Shown here in pieces: positions 10,869 to 43,594 of a stretch of DNA of 64,000 nucleotides; the first letter of the stretch is position 1, and each line of letters opens with the position of its first letter. The position numbers and the translations under genes are program-made. The notes beneath the pieces were generated by a model. The model worked only from the letters and a program-made list of their open reading frames with translations. It did not search any database and had not been told where the DNA came from. This DNA is from Mustelus asterias (lineage: Eukaryota), in the NCBI RefSeq assembly GCF_964213995.1, contig NC_135818.1, positions 79,422,001-79,486,000 on the forward strand, read 5' to 3'.

Positions 10869-10952
10869 ATTCGTCTAGTCCTAACTGGTAAGCAAGATTC
10901 TGTAGCCCTCGTACCTTCTCCATTAAGTTAGCAGTAGTAAGACTTCCCAACT
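10869..10952 (-). CDS. LIN52: LIN52 copy A exon 5 (ELGSLTTANLMEKVRGLQNLAYQLGLDE)
   Basis: 84 nt, atcag|...|gtaagt, visible in ORF 10768..11004. The terminal exon (SREMTRGK...) was not found in the window. Confidence 0.96.
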
Positions 10953-11799
10953 CTGATAACAAAGGTATTTTATTAGGGCACATTATAGAAGTGATGTCAA
11001 TCATACATCAGGTACGTTCAAAATGATGCGGGTGAAAATACAAATACACAACTTAGCAAATGGCCCAAAGCACAATTGGCCGGGTTCAATTAACACATCT
11101 GGAATTGAAAATTAGTCTCTGTAACGGTGACCATGGGTTTTTCTTTAACGTGCAGGAAATCTGCCTTCCTTACCTGCTGACCTTCATGTGACACCATAGC
11201 CCTCTGAAACGGCCTTGTAAACTACTCGGTTCAGGGCAATTAGGGAGGGGTAACAAATGCTGGCCTTGCCAGAGGCACACACATACCATGAAAGAATAAA
11301 TTAACAAATAACTTTTGAAATTTGCATGACACGCTATTAAAATCTTTTTTTAAAACCATACAAAAATACTCAATTGTTAATTTCCATCTGTTTTTTATTG
11401 TCTTTCAACATAAAACATTCTGAGGTTTTACAAAGCAGAAACAGATGCCTAACAGTCCTGGCAAAATTAAGGCAAAACATGTTTGAACAGAAATGTTATG
11501 CAGGCTTTCAAAACAGGATTTGAGCCATTCATCAAACTTGAATATTTAATAAGAATTGAAAAATAATGGCTAGTTCCTCCACTATCACCTCTCTCATTTC
11601 TTTCCAGGCTTGTGTGCACGTGTGATGATGTGTGCACATTTTATACTTCTGTGTTTATGTATATATTCTGTGTAAGTAAGGGTAAAAGTGTGTGTGTGTG
11701 TGTGTTCAGGGTTAGAGAAAGGAGGTTGAGAGATTGTTGGAGTCAGATTATCTGAGGAATCTAAGGGATGAAAGATTAAAGGTGTTTTTTTTTGCATTT

Positions 11800-14690
11800 G
11801 CAATGAGGACTTGAGGCTTCTCACCCTTTTTTGCAAAGGTCAAGTTCTAAGTTGAGTATTTGTGGAGCGCTGCTGGATGCGGATGTGGATTTTGGAGTGA
11901 CGTGAAGAACAAGAAAGAAGACGGAGAAGTAGACAATCTTTCAGCTCTGCTGCTATTGGTGGATCGTTGTGGTGGTTAAAGCCGCTGACTTGAACCCAAC
12001 GGGTACAGCTCGACTCAATGCAGAGCTACAGCTGCAGCAAGTGCCCGAGCTCCAGGCCAAGGTGCGCTGAACACTGTCAGAGTGATAGTGAAGACGTCAG
12101 GAGAGGACTCGCCCCGTGAAGTGGGAGCTGTTGAATTACTGTGGATTTGAAGTTGCAGGTATCTTTTGCCTGCAAGGTTTCCCCAGTGGTACTTCGACGT
12201 CACCTTCAGAAGTGTTGTGGGATGCACCAAGCTCCTGAAGGCGGTTAGGTAGAAAGGCGACCAAGGGCCCCTATCCATCCTGACCTCAGAGCTTGTTTAT
12301 TCTGCCATAGCAGTGGAACTGGGATGTCACCTTCCACCTACACAATCCCCACATCCATGTGGTGGACATGCTCATGTTAGTCGCCAGGTATGTGGAGCTA
12401 AATGGAAACAGCACTGAAGTCAAAGACTTTGGTATTTGCACCAGCAAACTACAGGTCAAGGTGACCTTGAAGACGGACATGAATGGAGCCATCCTGCGCC
12501 CTCCCTCCAGCTTCACCATTGGAGGAAGTCAAAACCATTTCTTCTATGCAGGGCAGCCGAGAGTGTGATGCACCAGAGGCAAAAATGGACACATTGCTGC
12601 CAACTGCAGCACCATCTTCCGTAGGTTCACCCAAAACAGGTTGCAACGTATGCACAAATAATCAGTGGGGGAGCAACAAAGAAATTTACAAGGGAGACTC
12701 ATGTACAAGAACAAAGACACTAACGCAAAACATGCTGCAAAAGGAGGCAAGGCTCCTGAGCAAATTACAGAAGTTCCAGAAGACACTGACGAAATACCTC
12801 CACCTCTATTGGCAAAGGAAGAATCAAGGGAAGAGGAGTTGGCAGAACAAGAAGGGCCCTGGCTAAAGGTGATCAGCAAAACTCGTCAGCAGAAAACACT
12901 AAAGAAATTAAATGTCGCTATTCTGTTGAACAGTAAAAAGTGGCCATTTTAAGCTAACTCTTCCAATATCGCCTCCACCTAAGATGAGGAATGACAAGTT
13001 GGCAGCCACCAAGAAAATAAGCGGCTAAGCACCAATGCATAATGGGAGCCATAGAATCCCCAGACTACAGGTGATGAAGGCAACAAAAGGCCCTGGGAAC
13101 ACCAACTAACAGTTACAGATGGTGGTCGAACTAGTGGTCCCATGGGCCATCCATCTGGTCAGGAGGAAACGATTGCCGTTTCTCCAGCCTAAAGGTTTTT
13201 CACCCTGAAAGGTGTTCAGAAGGCAAGAGAGAGATAGGGGGAAATGTCCCGACTCCAGAAAAGCATGCAGAATCTGCTCAGGCTACAGTCAACGGGGTTG
13301 ATGCCAAGGAAGATCTCTAAAAGATGAAGAGCCAGCAAACCTCGTACTTTGCCTCGGACACCTCCAAGTTGATCTCGAGCTCCAGCGTCCAGTCTGTGGA
13401 GCAGGCTCGCATTTCTTCTTCTAAAAGGTGCCCAGAGAGACCTCTGTGATCAGCAACCTGAAGGAAGAAGACAGCTCCATAAAGTCATTGCAGTCTGCCA
13501 TTGAGGATCAGCAACTCTTTTTATGCCAGGCTGTCTAACCTGAAGCCAAAAGACAGCACGGCCTCCCAGTCCTCCCTGTCACCAGCACAGGTCGGCACGC
13601 TGACACATGGTTACCATTACTGCCTCACAGTGCCAGGGACCTGGGTTCAACTCCAGCCACGGGTGACTGTCTGTGTGGAATTTGCACATTCTCTCCGTGT
13701 CTGCGTGGGTTTCCTCCGGTGCTCTGGTTTCCTCCCACTGTTCAAAGATGTGCAGGTTGGGTGCATTGGCCACGTTAAATTGCCCTAGTGTCCAAAGGTG
13801 TGTAGGTTAGGTGGCACAGGTCTAGCCCACACCCTGGTCCTGCACTGCAACAGTCACCCGAGCTTTCTTCAAGTTCATCTGGAGATCAAAGATGGATCGT
13901 GTACAAATCTCTGGATGAGGGAGGGAGAAACGTACCTAACGTCGCCCTCATCCAGGTGGCCCCCTTTGTATGGGGCTGCATGAAGCTGTGTGTAAATCCT
14001 TGGTATGCAAACACCAAGTGTCATGACATAATAAGGTTCTAGAGGTTCTGTGTTGCAAAGGATGGGTCTGGCCATGCTGCCGCACAGCGCTCCAAGTAGT
14101 TGGACCGTGCCGTATCACTTCTCCCTCATGGAAAAATTTGTTCAGAAGAATACCTATCACCCCAAATCCATCAAGCAGCGGTCTGCATGTAATCTCCTCA
14201 AGGCCCTGAGGGAAAAGGAGATGGTGGATCACTTTGGATCATTTCCTGAGCAGACTGTTGAGGTTATTTGGTAGAATGCCTCATTGCCAGAACTTTGAAG
14301 CAAGCACTAATCACCTTAGTGGTGAGAAGGACACACCTGTCAAATGGTGTCCGAAGTCTCTGCGCCACCACACCCTGCTCTCAAAGTGGCTGTGAGGGGG
14401 GAAGAAATGGTTGCACGCCTCCTTATGGAGTGTGCCTTTGCAATGAGGGTTTGGAGAGAGATGCAATGGCATTTGTTGAAGTTAATCCAGAGCAGTTTTG
14501 TGATACAGGACTCTGTGCTCTATGGCCTGTTTCCAGGCACGCACAGTGAGACAAATATCAACTGCTGCCGAAGGATCATCAACTCTGTGAAAGACACTCT
14601 TTGATCTGCCCAAAACTTGTTGATCTTTCAAAGATTTGTCCTCGACCGGGTGTTGCAGACTGACATTCCAAGGTCCAGGATTACATGCTA
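11800..14690 (+). mobile_element. Degenerate Tx1-like LINE: ZCCHC3-like ORF1 remnant plus ORF2 3' remnant, with a nested HE1 SINE at ~13590-13815
   Basis: ORF1 fragments NTVRV, YFDVTF, KDFGI, PPSSFTIGG..FFYAGQPRV. ORF2 fragments HLLMEC-like RLLMECAFAMRVW and SVLYGLFPG. Confidence 0.7.
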
Positions 14691-15293: not shown

Positions 15294-15360
15294 CTTTAAG
15301 CATGTCAATATCATCCTTCTCAAGTTCTGCCATCCATTTGGGTGGAGAGCTGGTAATAGG
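15294..15360 (-). CDS. LIN52: LIN52 copy A exon 4 (PITSSPPKWMAELEKDDIDMLK)
   Basis: 67 nt, ttgtag|...|gtattg, near-identical to the recalled vertebrate LIN52 sequence. Confidence 0.96.
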
Positions 15361-15619
15361 CTACAAAACAAAAATGGAAATTTGCCTTAATTTGTTAAAG
15401 TACCTCACAATTGATGCTTTACTGACTGAATTTTGCATTTTGCTTCTAGAAAAAGAGTTTGCGGGAGTGGGTGAATTAACACTGCACTTTCACTTTTGTG
15501 ATTGATACTACTCACTGGGATAGTTGGATAAGAACCATCTCACTGGACATATCACTAGAAAAATCATAGAAGGAAAGGGGATGAAAGCTGCGTTAGCCTA
15601 TTCAATATGAACTAAGGAT

Positions 15620-16600
15620 TGATTAATGGATAGGGAGCAGACAATCAGCCTAAACTAATTTAACAAGGCACCAGAAGGATCAGTGCTAAAGCCTCAGATA
15701 CTTACAATCTATATCAATGGCTTAGATGAGGAGGCTGAGTAAAATGTATCTAAGTTTGCAGATGACACAAAGTTAGGCAGGAAAGTAAGCTGTGAGGAGG
15801 ATGCAAAGAGGTCTCCGAGGAACATAAACTGATTGAGTGGACAAGAGTGTGGAAGATGGAAAATAAAGTAGAGAAATGTAAAGTTATCCATTTGGTAGGG
15901 AGGATAGAAAATTAGAATTATTGTTTTAAATGGTGAGAGACGAGTAACAATTGGAATTCAGAAGGACCTGTGACCTCGTACACGAATCACAGAATGTTAA
16001 CATGCACGTAAGCAGGCAATCAGGAAGGAAAGAAATTCAGAAAGCAAACAGTGTGTTAGCTTTTAGTACAATGGGATCGCGGTAGGAGAGTAAATAAATA
16101 TGGCTACAATTGGACAGGACATTGGTGAGACCAAACATAGAAACTCTGTACAGTTTTGTCTCCTTTCCTAAGGAGGGATATATTTGCCTTAGAGTGAGTG
16201 CAATGAAGGTTCCCAAGACCATGAGGAAACAATCGGGTGGATGGAGCTATTACAAGGGGGCATAACTATAGGGTTCGTGGTGGGAGATACAGGAAGGATA
16301 TCAGAGGTAGGTTCTTTCCTCAGAGTGGTTGGGGTGTGGAATGGACTGCCTGCAGTGATAGTGGAGTCAGACACTTTAGGAACATTTAAGCGGTTATTGG
16401 ATAGGCACATGGAGCACACCAGGATGATAGGGAGTGGGATAGCTTGATCTTGGTTTCAGATAAAGCTCGGCACAACATTGTGGGCCGAAGGGCCTGTTCT
16501 GTGCTGTACTGTTCTATGTTCTAATGAGTAGTCCAAGTCTTTATTTCATAGAGCTTAGAAGAATGAGGTGAGCTCATTGAAATATATACAATTATTGAGG
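15620..16600 (+). mobile_element. Old CR1 remnant with a younger copy-A-specific CR1 3' end (~16230-16523)
   Basis: SKFADDTK-like sequence at ~15750. The younger insert ends in (ttcta)n and is absent at paralogous ~37380. Confidence 0.75.
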
Positions 16601-16722: not shown

Positions 16723-16760
16723 ACTTTTGAAAGATGCTGCAAATTCCGCTACCCCTGGCA
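16723..16760 (-). CDS. LIN52: LIN52 copy A exon 3 (MPGVAEFAASFKS)
   Basis: 38 nt, tttcag|...|gtaagt, in frame with exons 2 and 4. Confidence 0.95.
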
Positions 16761-17968: not shown

Positions 17969-18043
17969 TTTGTTCTGGCCATAAATCTGGTGAAGCTCGA
18001 TCTAGTTTCTCAAAGCTCAGCAAAGACTGCTCCAAATGTGCAC
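17969..18043 (-). CDS. LIN52: LIN52 copy A exon 2 (GAHLEQSLLSFEKLDRASPDLWPEQ)
   Basis: 75 nt, cag|...|gtaag. Encodes the LxSxExL pocket-protein motif and the RASP DYRK1A site (human S28). Confidence 0.96.
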
Positions 18044-19719
18044 CTGACGGCAAAGAAGCAGAATATAAATAAGAGGCCAGGAGTGTTCAGGTCACATATT
18101 TTACAAGACATACACTGGTGGCCCAGTGGTTTTCATTTATTAACAGCAAGGCTGTAGTGGAACCGTGTATTCTCCACCATTATTTTGGCCCCAGGAGAGA
18201 AAAATTAGACAAGGAGTTAACACATTCAAATTGTCACATCCAACAGTCGAATGTGTAGAGTCCTTTCAGAATCCCACACACAATTATCAAAGCTCCAATA
18301 CTGGATTAATGGAGAGAAAACATGAATATTATCATACTTTAGCTCGAGGTCTATTGTAAACTAGTGTATCTCTTGTAACAGAGGGGATGCAGCACCATCT
18401 CTGGAGCAAGACACGATAACAGAAATTACCACTACAGCGTTACCCATTAATTTCAATATGCTAATAAAGTTAGTGAGACCAACTCAAGGATTTTAACAGA
18501 GCTAACAATTTATCTGTGATGATGCTCACAGTAAATTTATAATGACAAGCTTTTCTTTACAAAAGATGGATAACGGACAGACTTTAGAAACTTGACCCCC
18601 TCAACACAAACTACTGGCTGTCGAGCATTTTACGTTTAGATGGGCAATTTCAATGTCAAATATTGACTTAAAATCATTAACCATACAGGAAGATGGACAG
18701 ACATCTGCACATACACCAGTTTTTCTTTCTAAATAATGTACTAGGCAATCTACTAGTAAAGAAGTCAAAGCTCATAGAAACATAGGAACAGGAGAATGTC
18801 ATTCAGCTTCTCGAGCCTCTTCCACCAATCAGATCATGGCTCGGTTTGCCTCCTTTGGTTGCATATCCCTTAATAACCACCCACACCGACCAAAAATCCA
18901 CTAATCTCAAGTTTTTTAATTTTCAATTGACATTCTGTCCACCCCAACAGCTTTCTGGGGAAAAGATTTCTACTGATTTGATTTATTGTCACATGTACTA
19001 CTGTACAGTGAAAAGTATTGTTTCTTGCACACTATACAGACAAAGCATACCATTCATAGAGAAGGGAACGAGTGCAGAATGTAGTGTTACTGTTGCCTTC
19101 AAGTGAAATAGGGTTACATAGCAGCTTTTAAATGAGCCAGTTATGCAGATACAATCCAGCATCCATTTAAAAGGTCTTCCATTCTGCCCTTATTTATGTC
19201 CTGTTTTTAATGTTCAAAGCCCACATTTAGCATCTTTGTTAGGGAGACTGACAAATTTGCATAGACAGTTTCCATTATACGTGTGAACATGCAGCATATT
19301 TTTAATATTAACAGTTCAGTCAATCACGCATGGCAGTGCACTTGGGGAACCAGGGCCAAGCATAATCTTGAAATGAAGCACGGTTGAAGGACAGAAGCTT
19401 GCTGCAGTGCAGCAATTAACAGATGTACCAGGATGGTACCAGAGATGAGGGAGTCCAGTTGAAATCATAGAACTGTTGCACGTGGAGAGTGTAGAAACTG
19501 AGGAAAATGTTTCTTTACAAAGCAACTCGTTATTATCTGAAATGCACTGGGGAAAATGGCACTAGAAGCAGACTTTAATGGAATCGAATGTATACTTATA
19601 CATGTAAAAGAAAACTAAGACCATTGGGAAAGATCGGGAGAGGTGGACTGGATAACTCTTTCAAAAAGCTAACATAGGCATGACGAACCAAACATGCAGT
19701 ATGACACGACGATCAAGAA

Positions 19720-20577
19720 ATGTCTGGCCAAATTCCCCTCCAATTCGATTTTCAAGTTTGCTGACGACACCACCGTAGTGGGGCAGATCTCAAACAATGA
19801 CGAGACAGAGTACAGGAATGAGATAGAGAATATGGTGAACTGGAGAGGCAATAAAATTATCTCCCTCAATGTCAACAAAACAAAGGAGATTGTCATCGAC
19901 TTCAGGAAGCATAAAGGAGCACATGCTCCTGTCTACATGAACGGGGACAAAGTAGAAGTGGTCGGGAGCTTCAAGTTTTTAGGTGTCCAGATCACCAACA
20001 ACTTGTCCTGGTCCTCCCCATGCCGACACTATAGTTAAGAAAGCCCACCAACGCCTCTACTTTCTCAGAAGAAAAAGGAAATTTGGCATATCACACCAAC
20101 TTTTACAGATGCACCATAGAAAGCATTCTTTCTGGTTGTATCGCAGCTTGGTATGGCTCCTGCTCTTCCCAAGACCGCAAGGAACTACAAAAAGTCTTGA
20201 ATGTAGCCCAATCCATCACTCAAACCAGCCTCCCATCCATTGACTCTGTCTATACTTCCTGCTGCCTCGGCAAAGCGGCCACTATAATTAAGGACCGCAC
20301 ACACCCTGGACATTCTTCCACCTTCCTCCGTCGGGAAAAGATACAAAAGCCTTAGGTCACATACCAACCGATTTAAGAACAGCTTCTTCCCTGCTGCCGT
20401 CAGACTTTTGAATGGTCCTACCTTGCATTAAGTTGATCTTTCTCTACACTGTGACACTACAATCTGCACACTCTCCTTTCCTTCTCTATGAACTGTATGA
20501 TTTGTCTGCATAGCGTGCAAGAAACAATACTTTTCACTGTATACTAATACATGTGACAATAATAAATCAAATCAAAT
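19720..20577 (+). mobile_element. 5'-truncated Rex1/Babar-like LINE, copy-A-specific
   Basis: KFADDTTVVG...LNVNKTKEIVIDFRK and (aaatc)n tail. Empty site gatcaagaaatgcctcttc at ~42841. Confidence 0.85.
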
Positions 20578-21306
20578 ACCTCTTCAAACAGTTTTCAAGC
20601 AGAATAAGACAGCGCAGGTTTGGAATGGTTTTAAAAACAATAATAATAATTAGATGCTACAATGTAGAGCAGAGTGTGGGTTAAAAAGTAGCATTAGGAT
20701 CCCTCTGGGTGAATTGAGATTAGCCGAGCATGATATTAACTGTTCGCGTTGAGTCCCATATGAGTCTTCTTGGGAAGAATAATCGTATTAGACTTGAAAG
20801 AGTGCCAAAGAAGTCAGATGGGACTCGAAATGTTGACTCCGTTGCTCTCTCCACAGATGCTGCCTGCTTTTCCAGCACTTGCTGCTTTTAATCTGTTGCG
20901 TTATCGTCAAGTCGTGAAGCCAGACCTGTCAAATCTCCACAACAATGAAACTTCACTTTCGAAATATAACCCATAATTCGAAATAAATTAACAGAGGAAA
21001 ATAATGCCCAGGTTAAGTTAAGTAGGTTTTAACCCTCCCCTCCCTTTCCAGTCAGCTTCACTCCTGAATATCTTGTCAGGCTGACAGCTCTGACTGGGGA
21101 GGGGGGGGGGGGCTGTGGTAACGTGCCAACATTTTAAAACAGAGAATTATGACGCGATTTGTTTTCCAAAAACAAAGATAAAGCACACGTCCATTCTTTT
21201 CACTAGAGTCTGGATTGTGAGAGGATGGAGTAGAGCCGGGTGCCAGGGAGCGATGTCCGCTCAGCAGAGGCTCCTCTCTCTCTCTCAGAAACAAATTGGA
21301 ATTTAC

Positions 21307-21325
21307 CCGCACTCGGCGACGCCAT
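21307..21325 (-). CDS. LIN52: LIN52 copy A, coding exon 1 (MASPSA-G)
   Basis: Minus strand reads ggaagATGGCGTCGCCGAGTGCGG|gtaaat: 19 nt, strong Kozak context, GT donor. Matches the LIN52 N-terminus MASP. Confidence 0.9.
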
Positions 21326-22023
21326 CTTCCCAGCACCGTCACATGACCCAGCGGCAACCAAACACCAGCGACATGATTAATGCTTTTTTCCCCAGGGAGA
21401 CCGGCCTTCCCGATTTTAGAGGCGATGTCGACAGAAAAGCCTAACAATAATTTTAAAAATACACGCTGACGCCAAAACGTCGCCTTTTTGTCAAGTCGTT
21501 CGGCGGTTAGGCGCTCGGGTCTCGCGCGAGATCGCTCGCGGGGACGGGTTTGATGGACGTGGCGACTGACCAATTGGGATTGTGCATGGTCCCGCGTTCC
21601 GCAGGAAAGATCCAATCGGCTTCGACATAGGGGAGGGGGGGCGGGGGAATCTGATGGACGTTTCGACCGACCAATCAAGAAGGCGGATGGGTCCCTGAGT
21701 CCCCGCAGGAGGCATCCATTCAGCTTCGAGATCGGGAGGAAAGGGGCGGGACTGTGGAGAATTGATGGACGTGGCGGCAGACCAATCCAAAGTGTGGATG
21801 GCTTCCCGCCTGCCGCAGGGTAAGTCCAATCGGCTTCGAAAGTGGGGAAAGGGGCGGGCCCGGGATGGGGTGGGCGGGCCCGGGATGGGGTGGGCGGGCC
21901 CGGGATGGGGTGGGCGGGCCCGGGATGGGGTGGGCGGGGCTGAGTGGGAGCCGGCGGCGTCCAGTAGCGGGTCACCTGGCAGGAGCTGGTGTGTTATTCG
22001 GCAGGCGGGTTATCGGCTTTGCA
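21326..22023. promoter_or_regulatory. Bidirectional LIN52/ALDH6A1 CpG-island promoter, copy A
   Basis: GC/CpG-rich region between divergent ATGs. Five CCAAT boxes, GC boxes, E-box GTCACATGAC (21338-21347), palindrome TCTCGCGCGAGA (21520-21531), YY1-like CGCCATCTT over the LIN52 ATG. Confidence 0.85.
21851..21938 (+). repeat. 20-bp minisatellite (TGGGCGGGCCCGGGATGGGG) x ~4.4
   Basis: Directly visible. Only about one unit at the paralogous site near 44130-44160. Confidence 0.95.
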
Positions 22024-22059
22024 ATGGCAGCCATCCTCAGGACGACTTTAAGGCACAAG
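22024..22059 (+). CDS. ALDH6A1: ALDH6A1 duplicated (orphan or alternative) exon 1, MAAILRTTLRHK
   Basis: 36 nt, ATG...AAG|gtaaac, identical to 44250-44285. No exon 2 follows within copy A. Confidence 0.65.
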
Positions 22060-23429
22060 GTAAACCGGGCAGGAGCGATGAAATAGGAGGGAGGAAAATA
22101 TAAAATAAAGATCATGTGTGTGTGGTTTCATTAAAAACTCCTCAGTACAGAATGTTCCAGGGCCTCACACTGGTCGAGCTGGTCTCTCTTGCAGTCAGTT
22201 CGCACAACAGTTTATATATAGAAACCTATGTGTATTGTTTTTATTCACGGCGCATCTTATTAAACTGTTTGCAGATTTTCAATTTGGCTAATTGATCAGC
22301 AGTAATTTTTTCCCCATCACTTTTCACCCTTCCCCCTCAGCCAAACTTGTTTCTATTTATATATTCAAAAGTCGTTTTGTTTCACTCCACGTTGTCTTTT
22401 TCTACAGTTTTGCATCAATTTGTTTGTTGCTCCTCTGTTTCCCCTCCACAAGTCATGCCAAAACGTTGAATGTATTCAAGAGGCGGCTGGATATAGCACT
22501 TGGGGCAAATGGGATCAAAGGTTATGGGGAGAAAGCAGGATTAGGCTATTGAGTTGAACGATCAGTCATGAACACGATGAATGGTGGAGCAGGCTCAGAG
22601 GGCTGAATGGTCTCTTATCTTCTGTGTTTCTTCGTGAGTCGCCATTTGTTTGTGGACAGAATTTCTAAACATAGCACAGATACTTGGAAACAGCAGGTCA
22701 CTGTTCCCAGTGACTATACTTTGTTGTTGTGCCCTATGCCCTTAATTATCAGAATATTAATTGCAATTGTCTGCTGTTTTGCCGAAATAAGACTTCAGTG
22801 GTCGAATTCTTGACTCTACAGTATGGTGATTGTGGCATGTTGTATGCTGAGGCTGAGGATTTATCCCAAAACTTGAGATTGTAAGATGTCAAAGCTAAAT
22901 TTCTTAATTCGAAGCTTCCTAGTTTTAATGAGCATGCCCAACAGTCCTGTTTAATGCCTCTTTTTAAACCCTGCAGTTTATACTTGGAATGTCTGAAAGG
23001 AAAGCAGAAAATTGTTGCTGTCTTTTGCACAGTCTGCAAGCCTGTTGGTCAGATTTAGTGGTAGGCTTCCAGATCTCCCTAGTTATTGGTTCAATCATGC
23101 TGGAAGGGGTTGTGCTTGGTTCTCTGTTATACAGCATCTTTTTTCTCGCTCACCTCATCCTCTTGCGAATTTGTGGCATTGTTTCAAGATTCACACACTC
23201 ACATCCAAATGTTGCAAGTGAAGGACGATTATATTGTCAGTTTGCTTTTAAACGGTCATCTTATAATAGCAATCGGCCTCAGGGCAGATCTTATTTTTCC
23301 ACACCTTGGTCTTGTGGTTTCCTCTTCAATTGCTATAGGAGCCTCCCATTTTCAATTTAAAGTTGCCTAATAAAATTATATTTCTTCCTCTTGCTCTTAG
23401 CTTCTCTAATCCTCTTCAGTCACCACCTT

Positions 23430-23830
23430 CAGCAAGCTTTCATGCCTTAGAACATGGTCAACTTGTTGCTATTTATTGATATTCACTAAAGACATTTCCT
23501 CCGCCACCATCCTGAGAACTTCTTCATTGCTCTTCTTCTCTCAGCTAACCCACTATATCCTTCTCCAGAACAAATTTCACAACTTTTTAGTCTTTGGATG
23601 TCTTCAGTTTTGAAGGTCCATGCTTCAGCCCTGTGCACCTTCACAAGATTTCTACTCATTCCCATTCTGAATAATATTTTGTTCGGCAATTGCTTTTTTT
23701 TGCCATTAGGATGATAGCTCTGATTTCTTCATGGAAGGAACCATCTTCTGACATGATGTTTCCCAGGTACTTGGATGTGATATCTGTTCCAGCTGTTGAC
23801 CATTTATTTTCATCCCTTCTTTCCATCATT
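23430..23830 (-). mobile_element. RTE-like LINE remnant (paralogue ~46590-46970)
   Basis: Degenerate KYLG...EEIRA..MAKK and AEAWT. Confidence 0.55.
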
Positions 23831-24059
23831 TTATTTCTGTGAAGAGCCTCACACCATAGCTTTGAATACACATGCATCTAAGGTAATGATAGATCAAAAG
23901 CCAAAACAATCATATCAGCAGAGTTGAGAATGTTAAGTGAAAGAACCACTTGAATACAGTAATTCCTCCCTTAACATTGTACTTTTGTTCCTGAAAAATA
24001 CAATGTTTAGCGAGTCACGTTTTCCCATTGTGACTAATGTAATTAATTAATGGGAGCTG

Positions 24060-24430
24060 ATGTTGTAGTGGGAAGATCACTGGAGTAATAATCCAGAGGT
24101 CCAGGCTAGTGCTCTGAAGACATGGGTTCAAATCCCACCACAGCAGCTAGTTGAATTTAAAATCAGTTAATAAATTTGGAATATAAAACTGGTCTCCATA
24201 ATGGTGACCATAATGACTATTGCTGTTTGTGGTTAAAAACCCACCTGGTTCACTAATGTCCTTTAGGGAATGCATTTGCCCTCCTTACCTGGTCTGGCAT
24301 ACATGTGACTCCTGATTCACTGCATTGTAACTAACTCTGAAATAGGCTAGCCAGCCATTCAGCTCAAAGGCAATTAGTAATGGGCACAAAATCCTGGTCT
24401 TGCTAGTGATGCCCACATTCCATTAAAGAA
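24060..24430 (+). mobile_element. Deu-type SINE (related copies ~11090-11310, 25145-25485, 33865-34190, 47670-48010, and 51850-52070 on minus)
   Basis: gggttcaaatcccaccacagcag...ccttacctggtctggc...ggcaattag core recurs in all copies. Confidence 0.65.
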
Positions 24431-24754
24431 TAACAAAAAAGCTTTGAGGTTCTGCAGGAGCTTTCCCACCAGAGAAGTTTACTTTTTATTGCTAAATTAC
24501 TGCATTTGTAAACAACTTTTAAAATAGATTCAAATATATAAAAGACATTTTCTTTCTCCTTGGCTCTGCTTGCCATCTCTCTGGCTTGTGCCTATGTGCT
24601 TCCTAACCCATCCACTTGCTGACTGTTCCACTCCACAACTCCTCCCCAAAACCATTACTGTGAACAAGGGCTCAGCTCGAGGTAGGAAGCAACCTACGGA
24701 GTGAGAGCTTTGTATATCTTCAATTTTCCACAAAATCAACTTTAATTTCCCAAA

Positions 24755-25032
24755 TTCAAAGTTTATTTATTAGTTTCACAAGAAGATTACATTCACACTG
24801 CAATGAAGTTACTGTGAAAATCCCTTAGTCACCATCCTCGGGTGTCTGTTCGGGTACACGGAGGGAGAATTTAGCATGGCCAAGACACCTAACCAGCGCA
24901 TCTTTTGGACTGTGGAAGGAAACCCACGCAGACAGGGGGAGAATGTGCAGACTCCACACAGACAGTGACCCAAGCTGAGAATCAAACCTGGGCCCCTGAC
25001 ACTGAGGCAGCAGTGCTAACCACTGTGTCACC
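24755..25032 (-). mobile_element. HE1-like SINE, copy-A-specific
   Basis: Absent at paralogous ~47550. Confidence 0.8.
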
Positions 25033-25485
25033 CTCTGCGTCTCCTGCAAAGGTTGCATTGCTTTTATTTAACCTTTACCGTATCCTTAAGTTGATTCTAT
25101 TTTCGTTCTTCCTGTGACGCACCTGTTTTGCCATTGCTACTGTTGGGGGAGATGGTGGCGTGGTAGTATTGTTACTGGATGAGTAATCCAGAGACCAGGG
25201 TAATGCTCTGAGGACTCGGGTTTCAATCCCACCACAGCAGATGTCTGTAATAAAAATCTTGAATTAAGTCTAATGTTGATCTTGAAACCATTGTCGATTG
25301 TTATTAAAACCCCATCCAGTTTGTTCATGTCTTTTAGGCAAGGAAATCTCATGCTTACCTGGTCTGGCCTATACATGACTCCAGACCCACAGCAATTTGG
25401 TTGACCCTTAAATGTCCTCTGAAATGGCTTAAGCTACTCAGTTCAAGGGCAATTAGGGAAGGACAACAAATATTGGTCCAGCCAC

Positions 25486-28428: not shown

Positions 28429-31389
28429 GCAATCAATTCCTTTTGAGTTTAGAGTTTTGGAAATGTTAATCAATTGTGTGCCTGGCACAAACAAACCCTC
28501 ATCACCATGCTGAAAAACTCATAATTGATGATTCAACTTACCCAATATGGAATGTGCAATCTTTCTCTTTCCCACTTATCAAAGTCCAGAACCTATCAGT
28601 GCAGATTCAAAGCTTAGGGATCTCCAAGTGTCCAAAGGGTATTGTTGAAACTTAACCAACTAAAATTACAACAGATCACTGTTATGCTTATTGTTGGTAG
28701 ATCAACTAAAACTAAGCTAATCATTAGCCTTATTGTCCTAAAGAGTTATCCAGAGCACAGTTGGAAGAATTGCAGTTCCCCCACTCCCTAACAAGTTCTG
28801 GTTCCATTAGTCAGCCAGGCCAGTTATTCCTAGTTCCCAGGAGTATTGTGGATCTACCTGGTTTCAGAATCAAGTAGCAACTCAATCACAGATTCCAAAT
28901 CAGGTAAGGCACCTTAGAGCCACCTCAACACAAAATCCTACTTACCTCCCCTGACAGGAGGATCTTCCTCTTCAGCAGTCACTCGCTAATGAGTTTGATT
29001 GTCCACCTAAGAAACTCCATGTAACTGGACATGGGTTCAGTGGGTCCTTGCGTGGCTGATGAGCCCGATCCTAGAATCACATCTATGACCACACACTTGG
29101 CAGATGTTTCCAGGTGGGTTTGATCATTGGACACTAGATTGCTGGTATTCCTTTCTCAGGCTCCTTTTCCAGGCCTCCTCTTGCCATCGGGTGTCATTGA
29201 AGAAGTGTCCCTTCAATCAGGAGGTTCCTCCAAGTAGACCTCTACTGAGCAAGGGTCCGCCAGGCAGTCAAGCCTTCAGGGTGTCTTTGAAGCGCTTCCT
29301 TTGTCCTCTTGTTCGGGAGCGTTCCGTGAGCTGGGCACAGAAGATTTGCTTTGACAGTCAGGACTGTGACATTCTAAGCACATGGCTAGCAATGGAGTTG
29401 GTTTTGGATGGCCGTGGCCTCGATCCTGGTGCTTTCAGCTCCTTCAAGGATCCTGATAATACACCTGTCCTCCCAGCTGATGAGGAGAATCTGTCTCAGA
29501 ATTAAATGTTTACATAAGGTAAGTAGTATATCCACCACTGTTGCTATAATCCCATGGTATAATCAATGCCAGCCGTAGTTCAGCAATAATACTGTCACCT
29601 CTGAGTTAGAAGCTTGCGGACTCAAGACCAAACCCAGAGACGTGAAAACATAGGCTCAGGTTTTTGCTCGCAAGTCATATAGCATGAGGAGGAGATTTTG
29701 CAGCACATCGCAAACTCCTCTGGAGAAACTGCCCCATATGAGACAATCTTCCTTCGGATGGTGGGGGCGGACACAAGCTGCAGTCAGGCTGCGACTCCCT
29801 GGATATGGATCGGAGGTGGTGACAGGGACAGGCAACTGCCAATGTAGCCTGTTTGAAAGGCCGCCTCAGTTCTGTAGGACTTCATCCCACTTGTTTACTT
29901 ATGTTTTAGGCCCGGTTGCCCTCACCTTCACACCCCCTCCCCATGCCAACTCATGCCTCCCCTGCCCCACCCACAATGGCCCCTCAGACCCTCCATATCA
30001 ATTGTTGATAATTTTTTTCTAAAGAATTGTTGTTGCTGCAAGCCTATAAAAGTGTAAAATCAACCAGAATTTAAAATATCAATAGCAGAAGTTATAAGCA
30101 CTTGATGCCTTTTTATCTCATGCAAATAAACATTAAGCCATTGATAAAAGAGATCACAGAACAAAAGCTTATTACCACATGGTAAAGCTGTCAATCTTCT
30201 CCTCACCTGCATCAGCAAGAAAGTTAATCCTTTTATGGGAGTCTGGATTTGCCAGGGAGTGCCGTCTTTATTTAGAATTGTGGCAATCGTATTCAGCAGC
30301 AGATTTCTGCAATTCAGTGCAGCTTCCTTTTAAGAGCAGAAGGTTGGTAGAGCCATGTACTCTCTATAACTCTGCATAACACCCTGATGAACATAAAGGC
30401 ACCCAGCAGTATAGCAGATGCTCAGCCCTACACTAAATCATGTCATTAAGGCGGCAGAATGAAATCTGTGTGTTGCCTATCTCTACTGGAATTGATGCAG
30501 ACAGCCCACGAATCACAACCCTTGCACCCGAATAACAGCGCAAACAAACTTTAAGCCTCATAGAAGCTTGCAGTCTTTTGATTTCCTTGAATTTAATCAG
30601 CTGCTAATCATTTCTCAATAAACTTGCAGTTTATCATGATTCTCATCATGATTCCTTCTAATATGAACACCATCACCGATTGAGGTGGAATGTATCTTCA
30701 GTCAATGTCTAGATTATTAAAGCTGCCCCAGAACAATGTCAACATAGTAATCTAATTTTGGGTTGCTACAACAGTTGTAAACTTTACAAGGATGGCTTTG
30801 ACAACTTAGGAAATCAAATAAACTGCTCAGTTCAATTACTGTCTTGTAATCATTCCCAGGGATCAATTATTCTCCGTATTATTATACCCTCATGTGAATG
30901 ATACATATTAACTCTGCAATGAAGGCAATACAAAAGCTTTATGCAAACTTCAATCAGTATCACCTTTAACTATTAGCTGTGTTCAATTTTACTGAGACTA
31001 CAAAACCGTTTAATAAAATATCTTCTTCATAACCCAATCACAGGTCATTTTTCTTTTGCCTCAAGTCTATGTTTGTCCAGTTTTTAATTTTCTAAACAAT
31101 CAGACAGTGCAAACTTTTCCCCATCTCCCACCCACCTCAATCCCATCCACATCCGAACAGAAACAATATCCCCCAAGAGACACGGCTGCCTGGACTGCTC
31201 TTCACCAGACACCCAAAAATAAATTCCAACTGTTTTAACAAAAATGCAAAAAATTCATGAACACACTTAAAGGTTTGGCTTCAATACCTTTGCACCACTC
31301 AATCCAGCCACCCCCAATTCCATCTCAACTAAATTCCCCAGTGCTACCATAATTCCCAGGACCCACCACCCGATACAGAATTGCAATAT

Positions 31390-32945
31390 ACACGTGAAAC
31401 TGTTCAGCTCGTTTATATGAAACAAAAAGAGAGACCTCACTAAAAATTGGTCAAGTTGCACCTTCTTAGTTCAAAGGGAGGAATAGGGGTGCCAAATATT
31501 ATGATCTATCAATTAGCCTCAGATCTTAGATTCATACAAGAGTGGGTAAGAGGGGACCTCACCTCCACTTGGCTTGATATTGAAGCTGTCCAGTCTGAGT
31601 ATTCTTTACAAGCTCTGTTGTTTCTTATGGATTTCAAGACTACCTGACAAATGTGAGATTCCAATAATGAGCAACGCTCAAGAGTGTAACACTCGAGCAT
31701 GGAGGACGGTCCGTAAGCGTATGGAAGATTTAATTTGACTTCCGCTCTCTTCTATTCAGGGTAAGGTTTCCCACCAAGACCAATGGACCATGGCTTTGGT
31801 AATTGGAAGGTTAGGGGCCTCATTCATATGGGTGATGTGTTTAGTGGCACCTCCTTGTTATCTTTTGAGCAACTGTGTCAACAATATGATATCCCAAGAT
31901 CCTCTTTTTTCAGATATTTACAATTTAGAGACTTTATTCTTAATCACAAATCTCTGCACCTTGATGCTAATGACTCATCAATAGAAAGAATCCTGATATC
32001 TATGGAACCAAAGCAATTAATCAGCAAATTTTATGACACATTACGTTCAAGATACTGTGTGAATAAGTTAGACACTCTGCAATCTTGGGAGTGTATGAAT
32101 ATTGACTCAGAGACCTGAGACAGTGTCTGGGAAAATGCCAATGGAATCTGAGTCTGTAATAGAATGAAGGAGACCAAACTTAAAATATTATATATATTAC
32201 AGCATATTACACCAAGCTGAAGGCATAGGATAGGTCCTGCTATATCCTCACTGTGCCAAAAATGCAAAATGATGAAAGGTGACTACACAGATTGTGTCTG
32301 GTCCTGTGTCAAAATTAAATCCTCCTGGTCGGGCATACTTAGAGCTTAAGAAGATATTTGATACGTCCTCAGAGTTTGATCCTTTGTATTTGATTCTGGG
32401 GCTCCCAGACAAAAAGATAATTGATGCCAATGAGAAAAGGCTGGGCAATATCCTAATATTTGCAGCACAGAAGAATATCCTTTGCTCCTGGATTAGCGAT
32501 AAGTGTCCTTCTGCACAGTATTGGCATTAAATTATTATGGAATGTATCCTAATGGAATTCCTAACCTGTATACTCCGATATGCATGAATGCGGATGCATT
32601 CGGGAACGTTTGAAGCCCTTAATTCAAATATACAGTTTCTATAACATCTGACTCCTACAAGGTTTTCTGTAGCCTATGTAGCACTGCCTCTAATATACTA
32701 TTCACGAGGGTGTGCGCCATTTCACCATGTTTCCCAGGCTTTATCTTCTTCTCCTCCATTCTGTTACTTGTCTTTTTTGTACATGTTGAAGTGCTGGATA
32801 TACTGAATATAGTGAACACACTGAACCAACTGTGTTGGTTCCCTCCTGTCTTTTTCTATATGGCAAAATGATCAACCAGTGTTTGAGGGTGTGTTGCATT
32901 ATTTATAAAAATGGAAAAACTCGAATAAAAATATAATTAAAACAT
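31390..32945 (+). mobile_element. Degenerate L1-clade LINE (copy B)
   Basis: Paralogue of 8640-10200. Confidence 0.8.
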
Positions 32946-33639
32946 ATACATGTGAAAGATCTTGCTTCAATACAATCGATAGTCTATCGGTGCACAAGTC
33001 AGATAATTCTCAGCTAATAAGATCAGTTCTTGAACGTATTAGTTATCTATTTGCTGATATTTTAGATATATCAACATCCACATTATACTGCACCTACCAA
33101 ACCAGTCTGGCTGAGTGAGGAGCCTCAATGCTTGCTCTTCACATTCCCCTCAAACCATGAACAAGCAAAGATCTCAATTCCATTTGGATGCACCATGCCT
33201 GAGCCTTAGTTGTACCTGTAACTCCTCGATTTACATCATGTTGTGCTATTGCCTATGAATGCAAATAGAGCAGTTTGTTATGGAAACCGAATAATCCTCA
33301 CAGTGCTGTTTTAACTAATGTTTGAATGAATCAATTTATTGGACCTTAGTCCTGCTGCTAACTTTACTTCAAATTAGAATTGAATGTTTGTGGTTGTCAT
33401 TCTCTATTTCTCAACACAAACACACATAGACAACACAGCAAGCAAGGAGAAAAGATAGCAGGAGACTTGTTGCTAAGGAACAACAGAGTCTTGGGCAGTT
33501 AAAACCAACAGCAACTATATTCTTCAAACAGTCTGTGATCTACCATCTGTATTTAAAATTGTCATTATTCAAACTATCAGATTATTCCAAGATTGCAGTA
33601 TTATAATTACACAGGATTTCCAATTGAAAACATACTTAC

Positions 33640-33723
33640 ATTCGTCTAGTCCTAACTGGTAAGCAAGATTCTGTAGTCCTCGTACCTTCTCCATTAATTT
33701 AGCAGTAGTAAGACTTCCCAACT
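33640..33723 (-). CDS. LIN52: LIN52 duplicate copy B exon 5 (N75K variant); copy B has no terminal exon of its own
   Basis: 84 nt, splice sites intact. AAC>AAA at 33698 and synonymous GGG>GGA at 33677 relative to copy A. Confidence 0.85.
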
Positions 33724-34673
33724 CTGATAACAAAGGTATTCAAAGGCATTTTATTAGGGCACATTATAGAAGTGATGTCAATCATACATCAGGTATGTTC
33801 AAAATGATGTGGGTGAAAATATAAATACACAACTTAGCAAATGGCCCAAAGCACAATTTTGCGGTGGGGGGGTTGGCCATAGTGGTGGCAATGTCACTGG
33901 ATCATTAATCCACAAGCCCAGGCTAATGCTCTAGGACACGAGTTCAAATTCCTCCATCTCAGCTGGTGGAATTTAAATTCAATTAATACATCTGGAATTG
34001 AAAATTAGTCTCCATAATGGTGACCATGAAACTATCAACTGGGTTTTCCTTTAACGTGCAGAAAATCTGCCTTCCTTACCTGCTGACCTTCATGTGACAC
34101 CACAGCCCTCTGAAACGGCCTTGTAAACCACTTGGTTAGGGAGAGGTAACAAATGCTGGCCTTGCCAGAGGCACCCACATACCATGAAAGAATAAATTAA
34201 CAAATAACTTCTGAAATTTGCATGACACGTTATTAAAATCTTTTTTTAAAACCATACAAAAATACTCAATTATTAATTTCCACCTGTTTTTTATTGTCTT
34301 TCAACATAAAACATTGAGGTTTTACAAAGCAGAAACAGACGTCGAAGTTCTGGCAAAATTAAGGCAAAACTGTTTGAACAGAAATGTTATGCAGGCTTTC
34401 AAAACAGGATTTGAGCCATTCATCAAACTTGAATATTTAATAAGAATTGAAAAATAATGGCTAGTTCCTCCACTATCACCTCTCTCATTTCTTTCCAGCT
34501 TTGTGTGCACGTGTGATGATATGTCCACATTTTATACTTCTGTGTTTATGTATATATTCTGTGTAAGTAAGGGTAAAAGCGTGTGTGTGTGTGTTCAGGG
34601 TTAGAGAAAGGAGAGGTTAAGAGATTATTGGGAGGCAGATTACCTATGGAATCTAAGGGATGAAAGCTTAAAC

Positions 34674-36446: not shown

Positions 36447-36513
36447 CTTTAAGCATGTCAATATCATCCTTCTCAAGTTCTGCCATCCATTTGGGTGGAG
36501 AGCTGGTAATAGG
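36447..36513 (-). CDS. LIN52: LIN52 duplicate copy B exon 4
   Basis: 67 nt, identical to copy A, splice sites intact. Confidence 0.85.
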
Positions 36514-38212: not shown

Positions 38213-38250
38213 ACTTTTGAAAGATGCTGCAAATTCCGCTACCCCTGGCA
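38213..38250 (-). CDS. LIN52: LIN52 duplicate copy B exon 3
   Basis: 38 nt, identical to copy A, splice sites intact. Confidence 0.85.
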
Positions 38251-39389
38251 CTGAAAGAGACAATGAGATTGGGTGATTTTTTTTTATGTCACTGAGAAGT
38301 GTCAGTGTTGAAGAACAAAATAGTGTTTCACTTTGAAGACTCCCAAGGCAGATATAGCACAGGATAAAGGCAGAAAATCACTGTCTCTCTGTCTGTCTCT
38401 CTTTGCTCTGGCCTAATGTTGTGCTGTGGAGATGCCGGCGTTGGACTTACATTAACCTTACATTTCTATCAACCTTTATACAGCCCTATTGTAATTTGGA
38501 GCAAATTAACAAACATCTTTTAATACAGTGTGCACTGTTCAACCCATGCAATTACCTGTGACTTTTCAGCCCCATAGTGCAGCTGTGGAATGTGACCACT
38601 CTGTGCCACCCAATCTATTTCATGTTGTGCCCCAGTATTTGGACACCCTTCAGTGCTGGTGTGAATTTTCCCAATGTCTCATACCAATTCTCGCCTCAGA
38701 ATTAAGTCACCAAATTCGGTTCAGCTTCATACACTAGGAACTGAGTTTGGATCTCACATATGGATTTCACATTGGACTCTTGCAACCAGCTCAGACAGGA
38801 GGTTTCTATCATCAACAGTCTTGGCTCAAATCCCAGTACAAGAATATTAACCTATTCCACCTCTTTATGGAACTATATTTGACGACAATACATTTTATAT
38901 ACTGAGTTAATCTTAGTCACCTTCTTTATTGTTGAAATAGCAATATTCCAGCTCATAGGAACCTTACATTTCTATCAACCTTTATACAGCCCTATTGTAA
39001 TTTGGAGCAAATTAACAAACATCTTTTAATAGTGTGCACTGTTCAACCCATGCAATTGCCTGTGACTTTTCAGCCCCATAGTGCAGCTGTGGAATGCGAC
39101 CACTCTGTGCCACCCAATCTATTTCATGTATTATCCTGTGGGATGCAATTTACACACCGCGGGCTCCCCTGTGGCATGCACTGTTCAGATCACTCCATAG
39201 ATGATGCACTATTTGCATCATATAGTGGTCGTACAAGATCCTTTCTTAATCCACATGGGGTTCCTGTGTGGTGCATTGTAGGTTCCATTCCTTTCAACAC
39301 TGATTGCTCAGTTTGAGCTACCCATTTTGTTTTTAAATCGATAAGCATCAGTTGTATTCTATGGGTAAATCATCAAAGAAATATCTTAC

Positions 39390-39464
39390 TTTGTTCTGGC
39401 CATAAATCTGGTGAAGCTCGATCTAGTTTCTCAAAGCTCAGCAAAGACTGCTCCAAATGTGCAC
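39390..39464 (-). CDS. LIN52: LIN52 duplicate copy B exon 2
   Basis: 75 nt, identical to copy A, splice sites intact. Confidence 0.85.
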
Positions 39465-40847: not shown

Positions 40848-42512
40848 ACGTTTGTCGTATGAAGAGAGATTTAACAGTTTAGGCCTATACTCTCTGGAAT
40901 TTAGAAGAATGAGGGGAGATCAAATTGAAGTATTCAAGATGATAAAACATATGGATAAAGTGGAGCGGATACTTCCTCTTGTGGGGCATTCTAGGATGAG
41001 AGGTCATAGTCTTAGGATAAGGGGTAGCAAATTTAAAACAGAGTTGAGGAGAAGCTACTTCTCCCAAAGGGTTACAAAGAACAGTACAGCACAGGAAACA
41101 GGCCCTTCGGCCCTCCAAGCCTGTGCCGCTCCTTGGTCCAACTAGACCAATCGTTTGTATCCCTCCATTCCCAGGCTGCTCATGTGACTATCCAGGTAAG
41201 TCTTAAACGATGTCAGCGTGCCTGCCTCCACCACCCTACTTGGCAGCGCATTCCAGGCTCCCACCACCCTCTGTGTAAAAAACGTCCCTCTGATGTCTGA
41301 GTTATACTTCGCCCCTCTCAGCTTGAGCCCGTAACCCCTCGTGATCGTCACCTCCGACCTGGGAAAAAGCTTCCCACTGTTCACCCTATCTATACCCTTC
41401 ATAATCTTGTATACCTCTATTAGATCTCCCCTCATTCTCCGTCTTTCCAAGGAGAATAACCCCAGTCTACCCAATCTCTCCTCATAGCTAAGACCCTCCA
41501 TACCAGGCAACATCCTGGTAAACCTTCTCTGCACTCTCTCCAATGCCTCCACGTCCTTCTGGTAGTGCGGCGACCAGAACTGGACGCAGTACTCCAAATG
41601 TGGCCTAACCAGCGTTCTATACAGCTGCATCATCAGACTCCAGCTTTTATACTCTATACCCCGTCCTATAAAGGCAAGCATACCATATGCCTTCTTCACC
41701 ACCTTCTCCACCTGTGTTGCCACCTTCAAGGATTTGTGGACTTGCACACCTAGGTCCCTCTGTGTTTCTATACTCCTGATGACTCTGCCATTTATTGTAT
41801 AACTCCTCCCTACATTATTTCTTCCAAAATGCATCACTTCGCATTTATCCAGATTAAACTCCATCTGCCACCTCTCCGCCCAATTTTCCAGCCTATCTAT
41901 ATCCTGCTGTATTGCCCGACAATGCTCTTCGCTATCCGCAATTCCAGCCATCTTCGTGTCATCCGCAAACTTGCTGATTACACCAGTTACACCTTCTTCC
42001 AAATCATTTATATATATCACAAATAGCAGAGGTCCCAGTACAGAGCCCTGCGGAACACCACTGGTCACAGACCTCCAGCCGGAAAAAGACCCTTCGACCA
42101 CTACCCTCTGTCTCCTATGGCCAAGCCAGTTCTCCACCCATCTAGCCACTTCTCCTTGTATCCCATGAGCCTTAACCTTCTTAACCAACCTGCCATGTGG
42201 GACTTTGTCAAATGCCTCACTGAAATCCATATAGACGACATCCACGGCCCTTCCTTCATCAACCGTTTTTGTCACTTCCTCAAAAAAAGGGTTGTCAATC
42301 TGTGAAATTTGCTACCCCAAAGTGCGGTGGATGCTGGGACAGAGAGTAAATTTAAGGAGGGGTTAGACAGATTTTTAATTGGTAATGGGTTGAAGGGTTA
42401 TGGGGAGAAGGCAGGAAAATGGGGATGAGGAGCACATCAGCCATGATCAAATGGTGGAGCAGACTGGATGGGCTGAATGGCCTAATTCTGCTCCTATATC
42501 TTAGGAACTTAT
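40848..42512 (+). mobile_element. CR1 3' fragment, interrupted by the 41074-42285 insertion
   Basis: SYEERFNSLGLYSLEFRRMRGD...FSQRV resumes after 42293. Confidence 0.8.
41074..42285 (-). mobile_element. Young 5'-truncated CR1 LINE with an open 377-aa ORF2 RT C-terminus
   Basis: GVPQGSVLGP and FADD motifs, no stops. TSD AAAGGGTT at 41066-41073 and 42286-42293. Confidence 0.93.
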
Positions 42513-43575
42513 GACTCCAGTTAAAATCATAAAACGATTGCACATGGAGAGTGTAGAAACTGGGGAAAACGTTTCTTTACAAAACAACTTATCTGAAATT
42601 CACTGGGTAAAACGGTGCTGGAAGCAGATTTAATGACAGCTTATTGAATGGAATTGAATGTATACTTATAAATGTAAAAGAAAACTAAGACCATTGGGAT
42701 CAGGAGAGTAGGACTGGGTAACTCTTTCAAAGAGCTAACATGGTCGGTGCAGGCTTGGAGGGCCGAAGGGCCTGTTCCTGTGCTGTAATTTTCTTTGTTC
42801 TTTATAGGCATGACAAACCAAACGAGCAGTATGACACGACGATCAAGAAATGCCTCTTCAAACAGAGTTGTCAAGCAGAACAAAATAACGCCGGTTTGGA
42901 ATGGTTTTAAAAACAATAATATGATGCTACAATGCAGAGCGTGGGTTAAAAAGTGGCATTAGGATCCCTCTGAATGAATTAAGATGAGCCGAATACGATA
43001 TTAATGGTTCACGTTTCGAGTCCCATATCAGATCATAACTCTTCTTGGGAAGAAGAATCGTATTAAACTTGAGAGTTCCGAAGTCAGATGGGACTCGAAA
43101 TGTTGACTCCGTTGCTCTCTCCACAGATGCTGCCAGCTTTTCCAGCACTTGCCGCTTTTATTATCGTGAAGTTGATGGTGATAGTATGAGGAGCAGACAA
43201 AAAAATGGGACAGATCTGTCAAATCCCAACAACAATGAAACTTCACTTTCGAAATATAATCCCTAATTCGAAATAAATTAACCCAGGGACGGAGGAAAAT
43301 AATGCCCAGGTTAATTCAACCCTCCCCTCTGCTTCACTCCTGAACATCTTATCAGTCTGACTGAGAGGGGGGGCGGTTGCTGTGGTAACCTGCCAACATC
43401 TTAAGAGAGAGAGAGAATTATGACGCGATTTGTTTTCTAAAAACAAAGATAAAGCACACGTCCATTGTTTTCACTAGAGTCTGGATTGTGAGAGGATGGA
43501 GTAGAGCCGGGTGCCAGGGAGCGATGTCCGCTCAGCAGAGGCTCCTCTCTCTCTCAGAAACAAATTGGAATTTAC

Positions 43576-43594
43576 CCGCACTCGGCGACGCCAT
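43576..43594 (-). CDS. LIN52: LIN52 duplicate copy B exon 1
   Basis: Identical to copy A exon 1, with intact ATG and GT donor. Confidence 0.8.

Follow-up and report, generated by a model that had tools for sequence, protein, structure and literature searches.

Partial duplication of LIN52 around the promoter shared with ALDH6A1 in Mustelus asterias, with a predicted in-frame exon-repeated isoform

The window analysed here comprises 64,000 nucleotides (nt) of the shark Mustelus asterias (NC_135818.1, positions 79,422,001-79,486,000 of the forward strand; all coordinates below are window positions) and carries LIN52, whose product is part of MuvB, head-to-head with ALDH6A1. Self-alignment reveals a direct duplication of about 22 kb, as a result of which LIN52 exons 1-5 are present twice on the minus strand. 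An earlier inspection of the letters alone (the sequence-only reading) had drawn attention to the in-frame joining of exon 5 of one copy to exon 2 of the other, while overlooking that the duplicated unit is centred on the two-way LIN52/ALDH6A1 promoter. A probability of roughly 0.5 is assigned to the reading that this is an old, promoter-including partial duplication in which some of the transcripts of copy B would give an in-frame exon-repeated isoform as a minor product.

The duplicated LIN52/ALDH6A1 unit

The collinear self-alignment delimits the two copies and the zone between them as follows.

5084-26645: copy A, with LIN52 exons 5-1 and part of its intron 5, the promoter common to the two genes and, from ALDH6A1, exon 1 plus some 4.6 kb of intron 1
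26646-28046: junction zone, largely unique and free of N gaps, where intron 1 of ALDH6A1 (A) meets intron 5 of LIN52 (B)
27305-49015: copy B, with the same content and orientation as copy A

Aligned positions cover 15512 of the 21562 nt of copy A and 16170 of the 21711 nt of copy B. Both ends of the duplication are intronic, in LIN52 intron 5 and ALDH6A1 intron 1, respectively; the breakpoint is located to the junction zone only, where one 283-nt block matches 5084-5377. Copy B further contains small internal duplications (45664-46205 with 47016-47561, and 38454-38625 with 38960-39129).

LIN52 exons (coding parts only for exon 1) and the intron relevant to the proposed junction, all on the minus strand:
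43576-43594: exon 1B, 19 nt, phase 1
39390-39464: exon 2B, 75 nt, with the LxSxExL motif and RxSP site (PF10044; 4yos_E)
38213-38250: exon 3B, 38 nt, phase 0 at its end
36447-36513: exon 4B, 67 nt
33640-33723: exon 5B, 84 nt, phase 1 at its end, providing the donor of the proposed junction and differing from 5A by N75K (33698) and one silent substitution (33677)
18044-33639: hybrid intron, 15,596 nt long, that would be excised if 5B were spliced to 2A
21307-21325: exon 1A
17969-18043: exon 2A, acceptor of the proposed junction
16723-16760: exon 3A
15294-15360: exon 4A
10869-10952: exon 5A, with the ancestral Asn75 (6c48_B positions 24-50); its intron 5 extends beyond the window end

Nothing credible as LIN52 exon 6 was found in the window by a six-frame motif scan or, among the matches listed, by tblastn with the short tail, and the exon would thus lie off-window, to the left of position 1; between 33640 and copy A there is no exon 6 for copy B. 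Accordingly, LIN52 is whole from promoter A, its exon 6 presumably lying off-window, while ALDH6A1 is whole from promoter B (exons 1-9 lie within the window).

The two promoters are CpG islands between the LIN52 and ALDH6A1 start codons.
21326-22023: promoter A, between the LIN52-A and ALDH6A1-1A start codons
43595-44249: promoter B, between the LIN52-B and ALDH6A1-1B start codons, and the promoter of the complete ALDH6A1 gene

The observed/expected CpG ratio is 0.97 in island A (measured over 21290-22060, with 6 CCAAT and 7 GC boxes) and 1.01 in island B (over 43559-44286, with 5 CCAAT and 5 GC boxes), against 0.36 for the window as a whole. Of the CpG sites in the islands, 13 of 50 differ between the copies, whereas for LIN52 introns 2-5 the figure is 92 of 148 (Fisher P=1.4e-5). 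Both islands have been preserved since the duplication and transcription into LIN52-B is therefore likely; since promoter B is ALDH6A1's own, its persistence is explained without any function in LIN52. Being two-way, the two promoters would fire towards each other over 22-43.6 kb. Promoter A alone carries a 20-bp GC-box unit in 4.3 repeats (21852-21938), and a 230-nt run identical to copy B spans the LIN52 5' untranslated region, exon 1 and the start of intron 1 at 21197-21428.

With poorly aligned columns masked, the copies differ at 5.7% of 9,712 columns in the LIN52 introns and at 8.8% of 3,014 columns in ALDH6A1 intron 1, and blocks of at least 150 nt specific to one copy number 14 (8 in A only, 6 in B only). 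Such divergence, together with the many copy-specific insertions, makes it probable that the duplication is genuine and dates back tens of millions of years. Depending on the region, five shark rates give an age of 27-184 or 44-292 million years (PMC9826928), and the authors of that work caution that such rates may be underestimates. Near-identical exons with diverged introns are also the pattern expected of two alleles, and a derived Asp-to-His change is common to both copies, as would befit two haplotypes placed in tandem by the assembly. Nevertheless, the divergence lies above the allelic range cited, the 3.2-4.2% heterozygosity of amphioxus being itself termed exceptionally high (PMC12862219), while several sharks fall at the low end among fishes (PMC9826928). 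In view of this, as well as of the copy-specific blocks, the unique junction and the lack of any N in the window, an assembly artefact appears very unlikely.

The 5B-2A junction and its predicted protein

In both copies, GT is present at 10 of 10 LIN52 donors and AG at 8 of 8 internal acceptors. The phases after exons 1-5 are 1, 1, 0, 1 and 1, hence exons 2-5 amount to 264 nt (88 amino acids). Reconstruction of exons and phases bears out the proposal that the end of exon 5B and the start of exon 2A (33640 to 18043) are both in phase 1, and that their join yields TGT (Cys) and adds the 264 nt in frame, with 182 codons free of stops through exon 5A. Both halves of the junction sequence quoted in the sequence-only reading occur twice each on the minus strand, and translation of the predicted join reproduces the peptide GLDECAHLEQ that it had named. 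The AAA/GGA variants said to mark exon 5B are likewise the sole differences between the copies in 283 coding nt, both falling in exon 5, while exons 2-4 are identical. The in-frame phase itself is barely above chance, since three of the four promoter-including duplications ending in introns 2-5, and six of ten internal exon blocks, would also remain in frame.

The LxSxExL motif (residues 14-20) and the downstream RxSP Ser24 are intact in both copies. Exon 2 matches the crystallised peptides 4yos_E and 4yoo_X and exon 5A matches chain 6c48_B at positions 24-50; of the four exon peptides scanned, three (exons 2, 5A and 5B) exceed the Pfam PF10044 cut-off, and exon 4, which at 22 amino acids is too short, gave no match. 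When phosphorylated, this motif binds the p107/p130 cleft, for which LIN52 residues 13-45 suffice, and the wild-type motif is weak by design and open to tuning (PMC4421984). As a separate observation, codon 9 (39459 and 18038, minus strand) encodes His in both copies as against Asp in 238 of 238 named LIN52 proteins matching that motif, which may reflect either a lineage change preceding the duplication or one spread by conversion.

The predicted double protein would have about 200 residues, 182 from the exons in the window and 18 by analogy with the protein P0367. The portrayal of this product as two pocket-protein-binding motifs on one complete C-terminus holds for the motifs, whereas the C-terminus depends on an exon 6 that is not in the window. 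An alignment of 24 proteins, ranging from amphioxus to birds, shows no variation in any of them at 13 consecutive positions of the exon-6 segment, and this segment would form the last 18 of the 68 residues of the LIN9-binding chain 6c48_B. In a whale-shark LIN52 model of low confidence (predicted local distance difference test, pLDDT, 54), to which little weight is given, exon 6 accounts for nearly all of the last helix (88-103). The B-MYB site is built by LIN9 and LIN52 helices together (10.1101/788265), and measurements of MuvB gave chiefly a 1:1:1:1:1 stoichiometry, along with some oligomer (PMC9424243). As the first repeat comes without the exon-6 segment and MuvB is mainly equimolar, the likely product is normal LIN52 with an 88-residue N-terminal add-on, so that the "potentially new MuvB subunit architecture" of the sequence-only reading is retained only insofar as the splice is possible. 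Such a double LIN52 would enter MuvB via its second repeat, with a flexible extra pocket motif. The far stronger proposition that a LIN52 of about 200 residues, bearing two phospho-regulated p107/p130 motifs on one LIN9-binding end, has been kept by selection for tens of millions of years is doubtful; the same doubt attaches to its description as a two-handed DREAM adaptor expressed from the ALDH6A1 promoter, with each duplicated promoter able to serve both genes.

Read-through, termination and selection on copy B

The favoured sequence of events may be outlined as follows. The head-to-head promoter, LIN52 exons 1-5 and ALDH6A1 exon 1 were copied by the old tandem duplication of about 22 kb. 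Promoter B, kept active for ALDH6A1, would also fire into LIN52 exons 1B-5B, which lack a terminal exon, and the resulting transcripts would meet mixed fates. Some would stop at cryptic polyadenylation (poly(A)) sites or at promoter A, while others would read through, with exon definition joining 5B to 2A and onwards to exon 6 in an in-frame mRNA for about 200 residues. The protein would enter MuvB by its second, complete LIN9/B-MYB-binding end, the extra 88 residues carrying a second p107/p130 motif, and would most likely be a minor, tolerated isoform. Copy B would have stayed intact through selection against harmful missense changes in the translated B exons along with patchy gene conversion.

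There is precedent for the splice in question. Transcripts of a DMD exon 14-17 duplication contain the order 16:17:14:15 (PMC7350004), partial tandem duplications (PTDs) of KMT2A are in-frame intragenic repeats (PMC11082951), and read-through chimeras prefer to join the second-to-last exon to the second exon within 30 kb (PMC4450057). A 5B-2A splice is thus possible and would be the default outcome for tandemly repeated exons, the corresponding mRNA being a prediction. Scored with an approximate matrix, 16 acceptors of at least 8 bits lie along the path from 5B to 2A, of which 2A has the top score; hence exon 2A is, as had been claimed, the next LIN52 acceptor after 5B, though not the next acceptor, as 15 other AG acceptors above this threshold come earlier. 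By the same matrix, the exon 5 acceptor is the weakest among those of LIN52, with 4.2 bits in B (33724-33745) and 1.4 bits in A (10953-10975, minus strand). Exon 1A was also considered as an internal exon and discarded, since of the four upstream acceptors scoring above 0 none gives a length divisible by 3. A human LIN52 circular RNA (hsa_circ_0000554, with a span of about 280 nt; PMC6603403, PMC8307310) was found to have no bearing on an exon 2-5 circle.

The hybrid intron contains, in antisense, ALDH6A1 intron 1A and exon 1A, as well as promoter A and LIN52 exon 1A. Within it lies a near-perfect palindrome of about 206 bp (25840-26045) that folds as a single long hairpin (z = -29) and has the appearance of a local repeat copied in inverted orientation, with only part of it present in B.

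Several observations weigh against read-through and a major double protein. The opposing promoter A sits in the 15.6-kb path, and the 5,987 nt that are new to a B transcript hold 13 AATAAA signals against 4.45 expected at the density of native LIN52 intron (27 in 36,307 nt; P=7e-4), although part of this excess arises because the path is the A-rich antisense of an intron (the equivalent in B has 6 in 4,730 nt). Among 23 cartilaginous-fish LIN52 models, which are predicted and over-sample odd isoforms, exon 5 is not followed by exon 6 in 16 and is followed by it in 6, while 1 model is partial. Further, the first repeat is without the exon-6 segment, so that copy B lacks the complete C-terminal LIN9/B-MYB-binding region. 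It is conceivable, albeit clearly less probable than the favoured reading, that B transcripts practically never reach 2A but are terminated at cryptic last exons or at poly(A) sites, or collide with promoter A, from which ALDH6A1-1A would be transcribed against them, in which case a LIN52 truncated after exon 5 would be degraded or act as a soluble decoy for the p107/p130 cleft. Apart from the AATAAA excess, this is favoured by several good acceptors that are followed within 25-220 nt by a short frame and a poly(A) signal (for example, 32153, 27578, 25955 and 22992), by intron-5 ends in 108 of 166 named LIN52 representatives (a sample biased to odd isoforms) and by the sufficiency of residues 13-45 for pocket binding (PMC4421984). 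On the other hand, native intron 5 has such signals too and must be read through, and it resembles the new path in its count of cryptic exon pairs. At aligned sites, AATAAA is confined to A in three cases and to B in three; this balanced turnover gives no sign of selection for a stop, nor for or against read-through.

The exons of copy B are better preserved than neutrality would predict. Against 69 differences in 1405 flanking positions (21-200 nt away from the exons), the copies show 2 in 283 nt of coding sequence and 1 in 86 core splice positions. A model with A constrained and B neutral would lead to 8.4 coding differences where 2 are observed (P=0.010; P=0.023 in the block-resampling version), and amino-acid changes alone number 1 against 5.3 expected (P=0.03). 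This support for constraint on B is of moderate strength and does not single out any one product as the selected one; at the rate of the slowest intron it drops to P=0.12. In addition, purely intronic identical runs reach 242 nt, equalled in 0 of 500 permutations, and this patchiness suggests that gene conversion, or other patchiness, may contribute and confound the test. Long identical intronic runs of 145-242 nt at 15508-16007 and 6311-6554 are candidate conversion tracts. A further point on the adverse side is that the sole amino-acid change of B, N75K, replaces an Asn shared by all 276 of the named proteins that match the motif.

Two interpretations make more of this constraint. In the first, selection has maintained the doubled LIN52 as a main product, its two motifs strengthening or bridging p107/p130 binding and shifting DREAM versus MMB. 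The open frame, the tunable weakness of the wild-type motif (PMC4421984) and the better-than-neutral preservation of B exons and splice sites over at least some 27 million years would agree with this. Nonetheless, it is rendered unlikely by the phase being expected by chance, by promoter B being accounted for by ALDH6A1, by N75K at an invariant site, by the protein-level turnover of surplus LIN52 (10.1101/199539) and by the absence of a doubled LIN52 from the protein searches described below. In the second, 5B splices directly to exon 6, so that copy B serves as an alternative promoter and exon block for a LIN52 of normal length with N75K. This would account for the constraint on B coding sites, and the 5B donor has the same phase as the 5A donor and is compatible with exon 6. 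However, four intact exons with good splice sites would have to be skipped, and no Lys75 occurs among 297 named LIN52 sequences, this species' own models not being included, which makes direct splicing quite improbable.

The protein searches likewise speak against the exon-repeated isoform. None of the 297 named LIN52 proteins, among which the LIN52 models of this species are not present, is doubled, and none has repeated motifs, His at residue 9 or Lys75 (18 unnamed LIN52 hits are excluded from all counts). In the best 120 of 454 hits (67-216 amino acids) there was no doubled LIN52, the top non-self score being 220 bits as against 362 for a doubled control. A query of exon 5B plus in-frame intron, which had no score control, reached 53 bits at the top of the best 120 of 302 hits (306 candidates, 89-2000 amino acids) against about 45 for ordinary ones. 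Since only cluster representatives were scored, with longer members existing (203 amino acids under a representative of 153, and 253 under 123), and since this species' LIN52 is absent from the results, the negative is weak for this species. In two LIN52 models of Stegostoma tigrinum (P0131 and P0190) the N-terminus repeats the first five residues, which hints at a short local duplication near the start codon in this species.

Related systems, ALDH6A1 and minor features

The arrangement resembles the partial tandem duplications of KMT2A and of DMD exons 14-17 in being a directly repeated block of exons whose breakpoints lie in introns, where a later exon is, or here would be, joined to an earlier one. 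As in KMT2A-PTD (PMC11082951), the frame is kept (264 nt, phase 1 to 1, no stop) and, as in DMD (PMC7350004), a circular RNA could yield a look-alike junction. Those cases are, however, recent disease alleles within one gene, while that of LIN52 is an old, diverged germline duplication. Unlike a PTD with one gene and one promoter, it takes in the promoter, the first exon and part of the neighbouring ALDH6A1; because the promoter is included, an intact single-copy transcript can still be made from promoter A.

With the "2-2" form of cis-splicing of adjacent genes (cis-SAGe; PMC4450057) the LIN52 copies share the same-strand arrangement, an intron below 30 kb (15,596 nt) and the joining of a second-to-last to a second exon, here predicted from sequence; they differ in that both partners are copies of one gene, that no terminal exon follows the upstream unit within the window and that transcription would have to pass an opposing promoter. 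Gene duplicates of the partial and chimeric kind (PMC3449122) offer a further parallel, as one duplication partly covers two adjacent genes and truncated copies may recruit new 3' ends. Here, though, the genes are head-to-head on opposite strands, which leaves no two-gene fusion frame, and each gains an upstream promoter and exon block. As it would act in the manner of a PTD or a "2-2" read-through yet departs from each in one defining feature, the locus is classed as a new case of partial gene duplication. No published account of a LIN52/ALDH6A1 duplication in sharks was found among titles and abstract starts in open-licence PubMed Central and bioRxiv.

The mechanism is already known, the frame is near chance and the double form is predicted from sequence. 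If the double protein is real, it would provide a natural test of whether the number of pocket motifs tunes DREAM assembly (297 of 297 named proteins have one motif set) and an ancient germline parallel to the partial tandem duplications known from disease. Otherwise, the locus shows a duplicated two-way promoter that leaves both genes whole, each with an extra upstream exon block.

The ALDH6A1 features, all on the plus strand, are:
22024-22059: exon 1A, coding part, identical to 1B, with a phase-0 GT donor and without an exon 2 of its own
44250-61846: exons 1B-9 (Pfam Aldedh), the gene running beyond the window
44250-44285, 53833-53874, 55480-55554, 56199-56360, 56994-57072: exons 1B-5
58491-58793, 59603-59724, 60787-60976, 61665-61846: exons 6-9

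The translation of exons 1B-9 (397 residues) is identical at 397 of 397 positions to RefSeq XP_078090485.1 (P0322), the other 11 cartilaginous-fish ALDH6A1 proteins compared having 353-377 matching positions. Only exon 1 is duplicated, its 36 coding nt being identical with the same donor, and exon 2 onward is single. In a mirror image of the LIN52 case, exon 1A could splice over about 31.8 kb to exon 2 at 53833, across LIN52-B in antisense. Two RefSeq accessions exist for an identical ALDH6A1 protein, which fits alternative first exons but occurs in other species too.

An Rfam scan of the whole 64 kb gave 0 matches. A retroelement fragment with a weak integrase match, below the cut-off, lies at 772-1260 on the minus strand, and another, with a reverse-transcriptase frame (Pfam RVT_1), occupies 41145-42311 of the same strand in intron 1 of LIN52-B.

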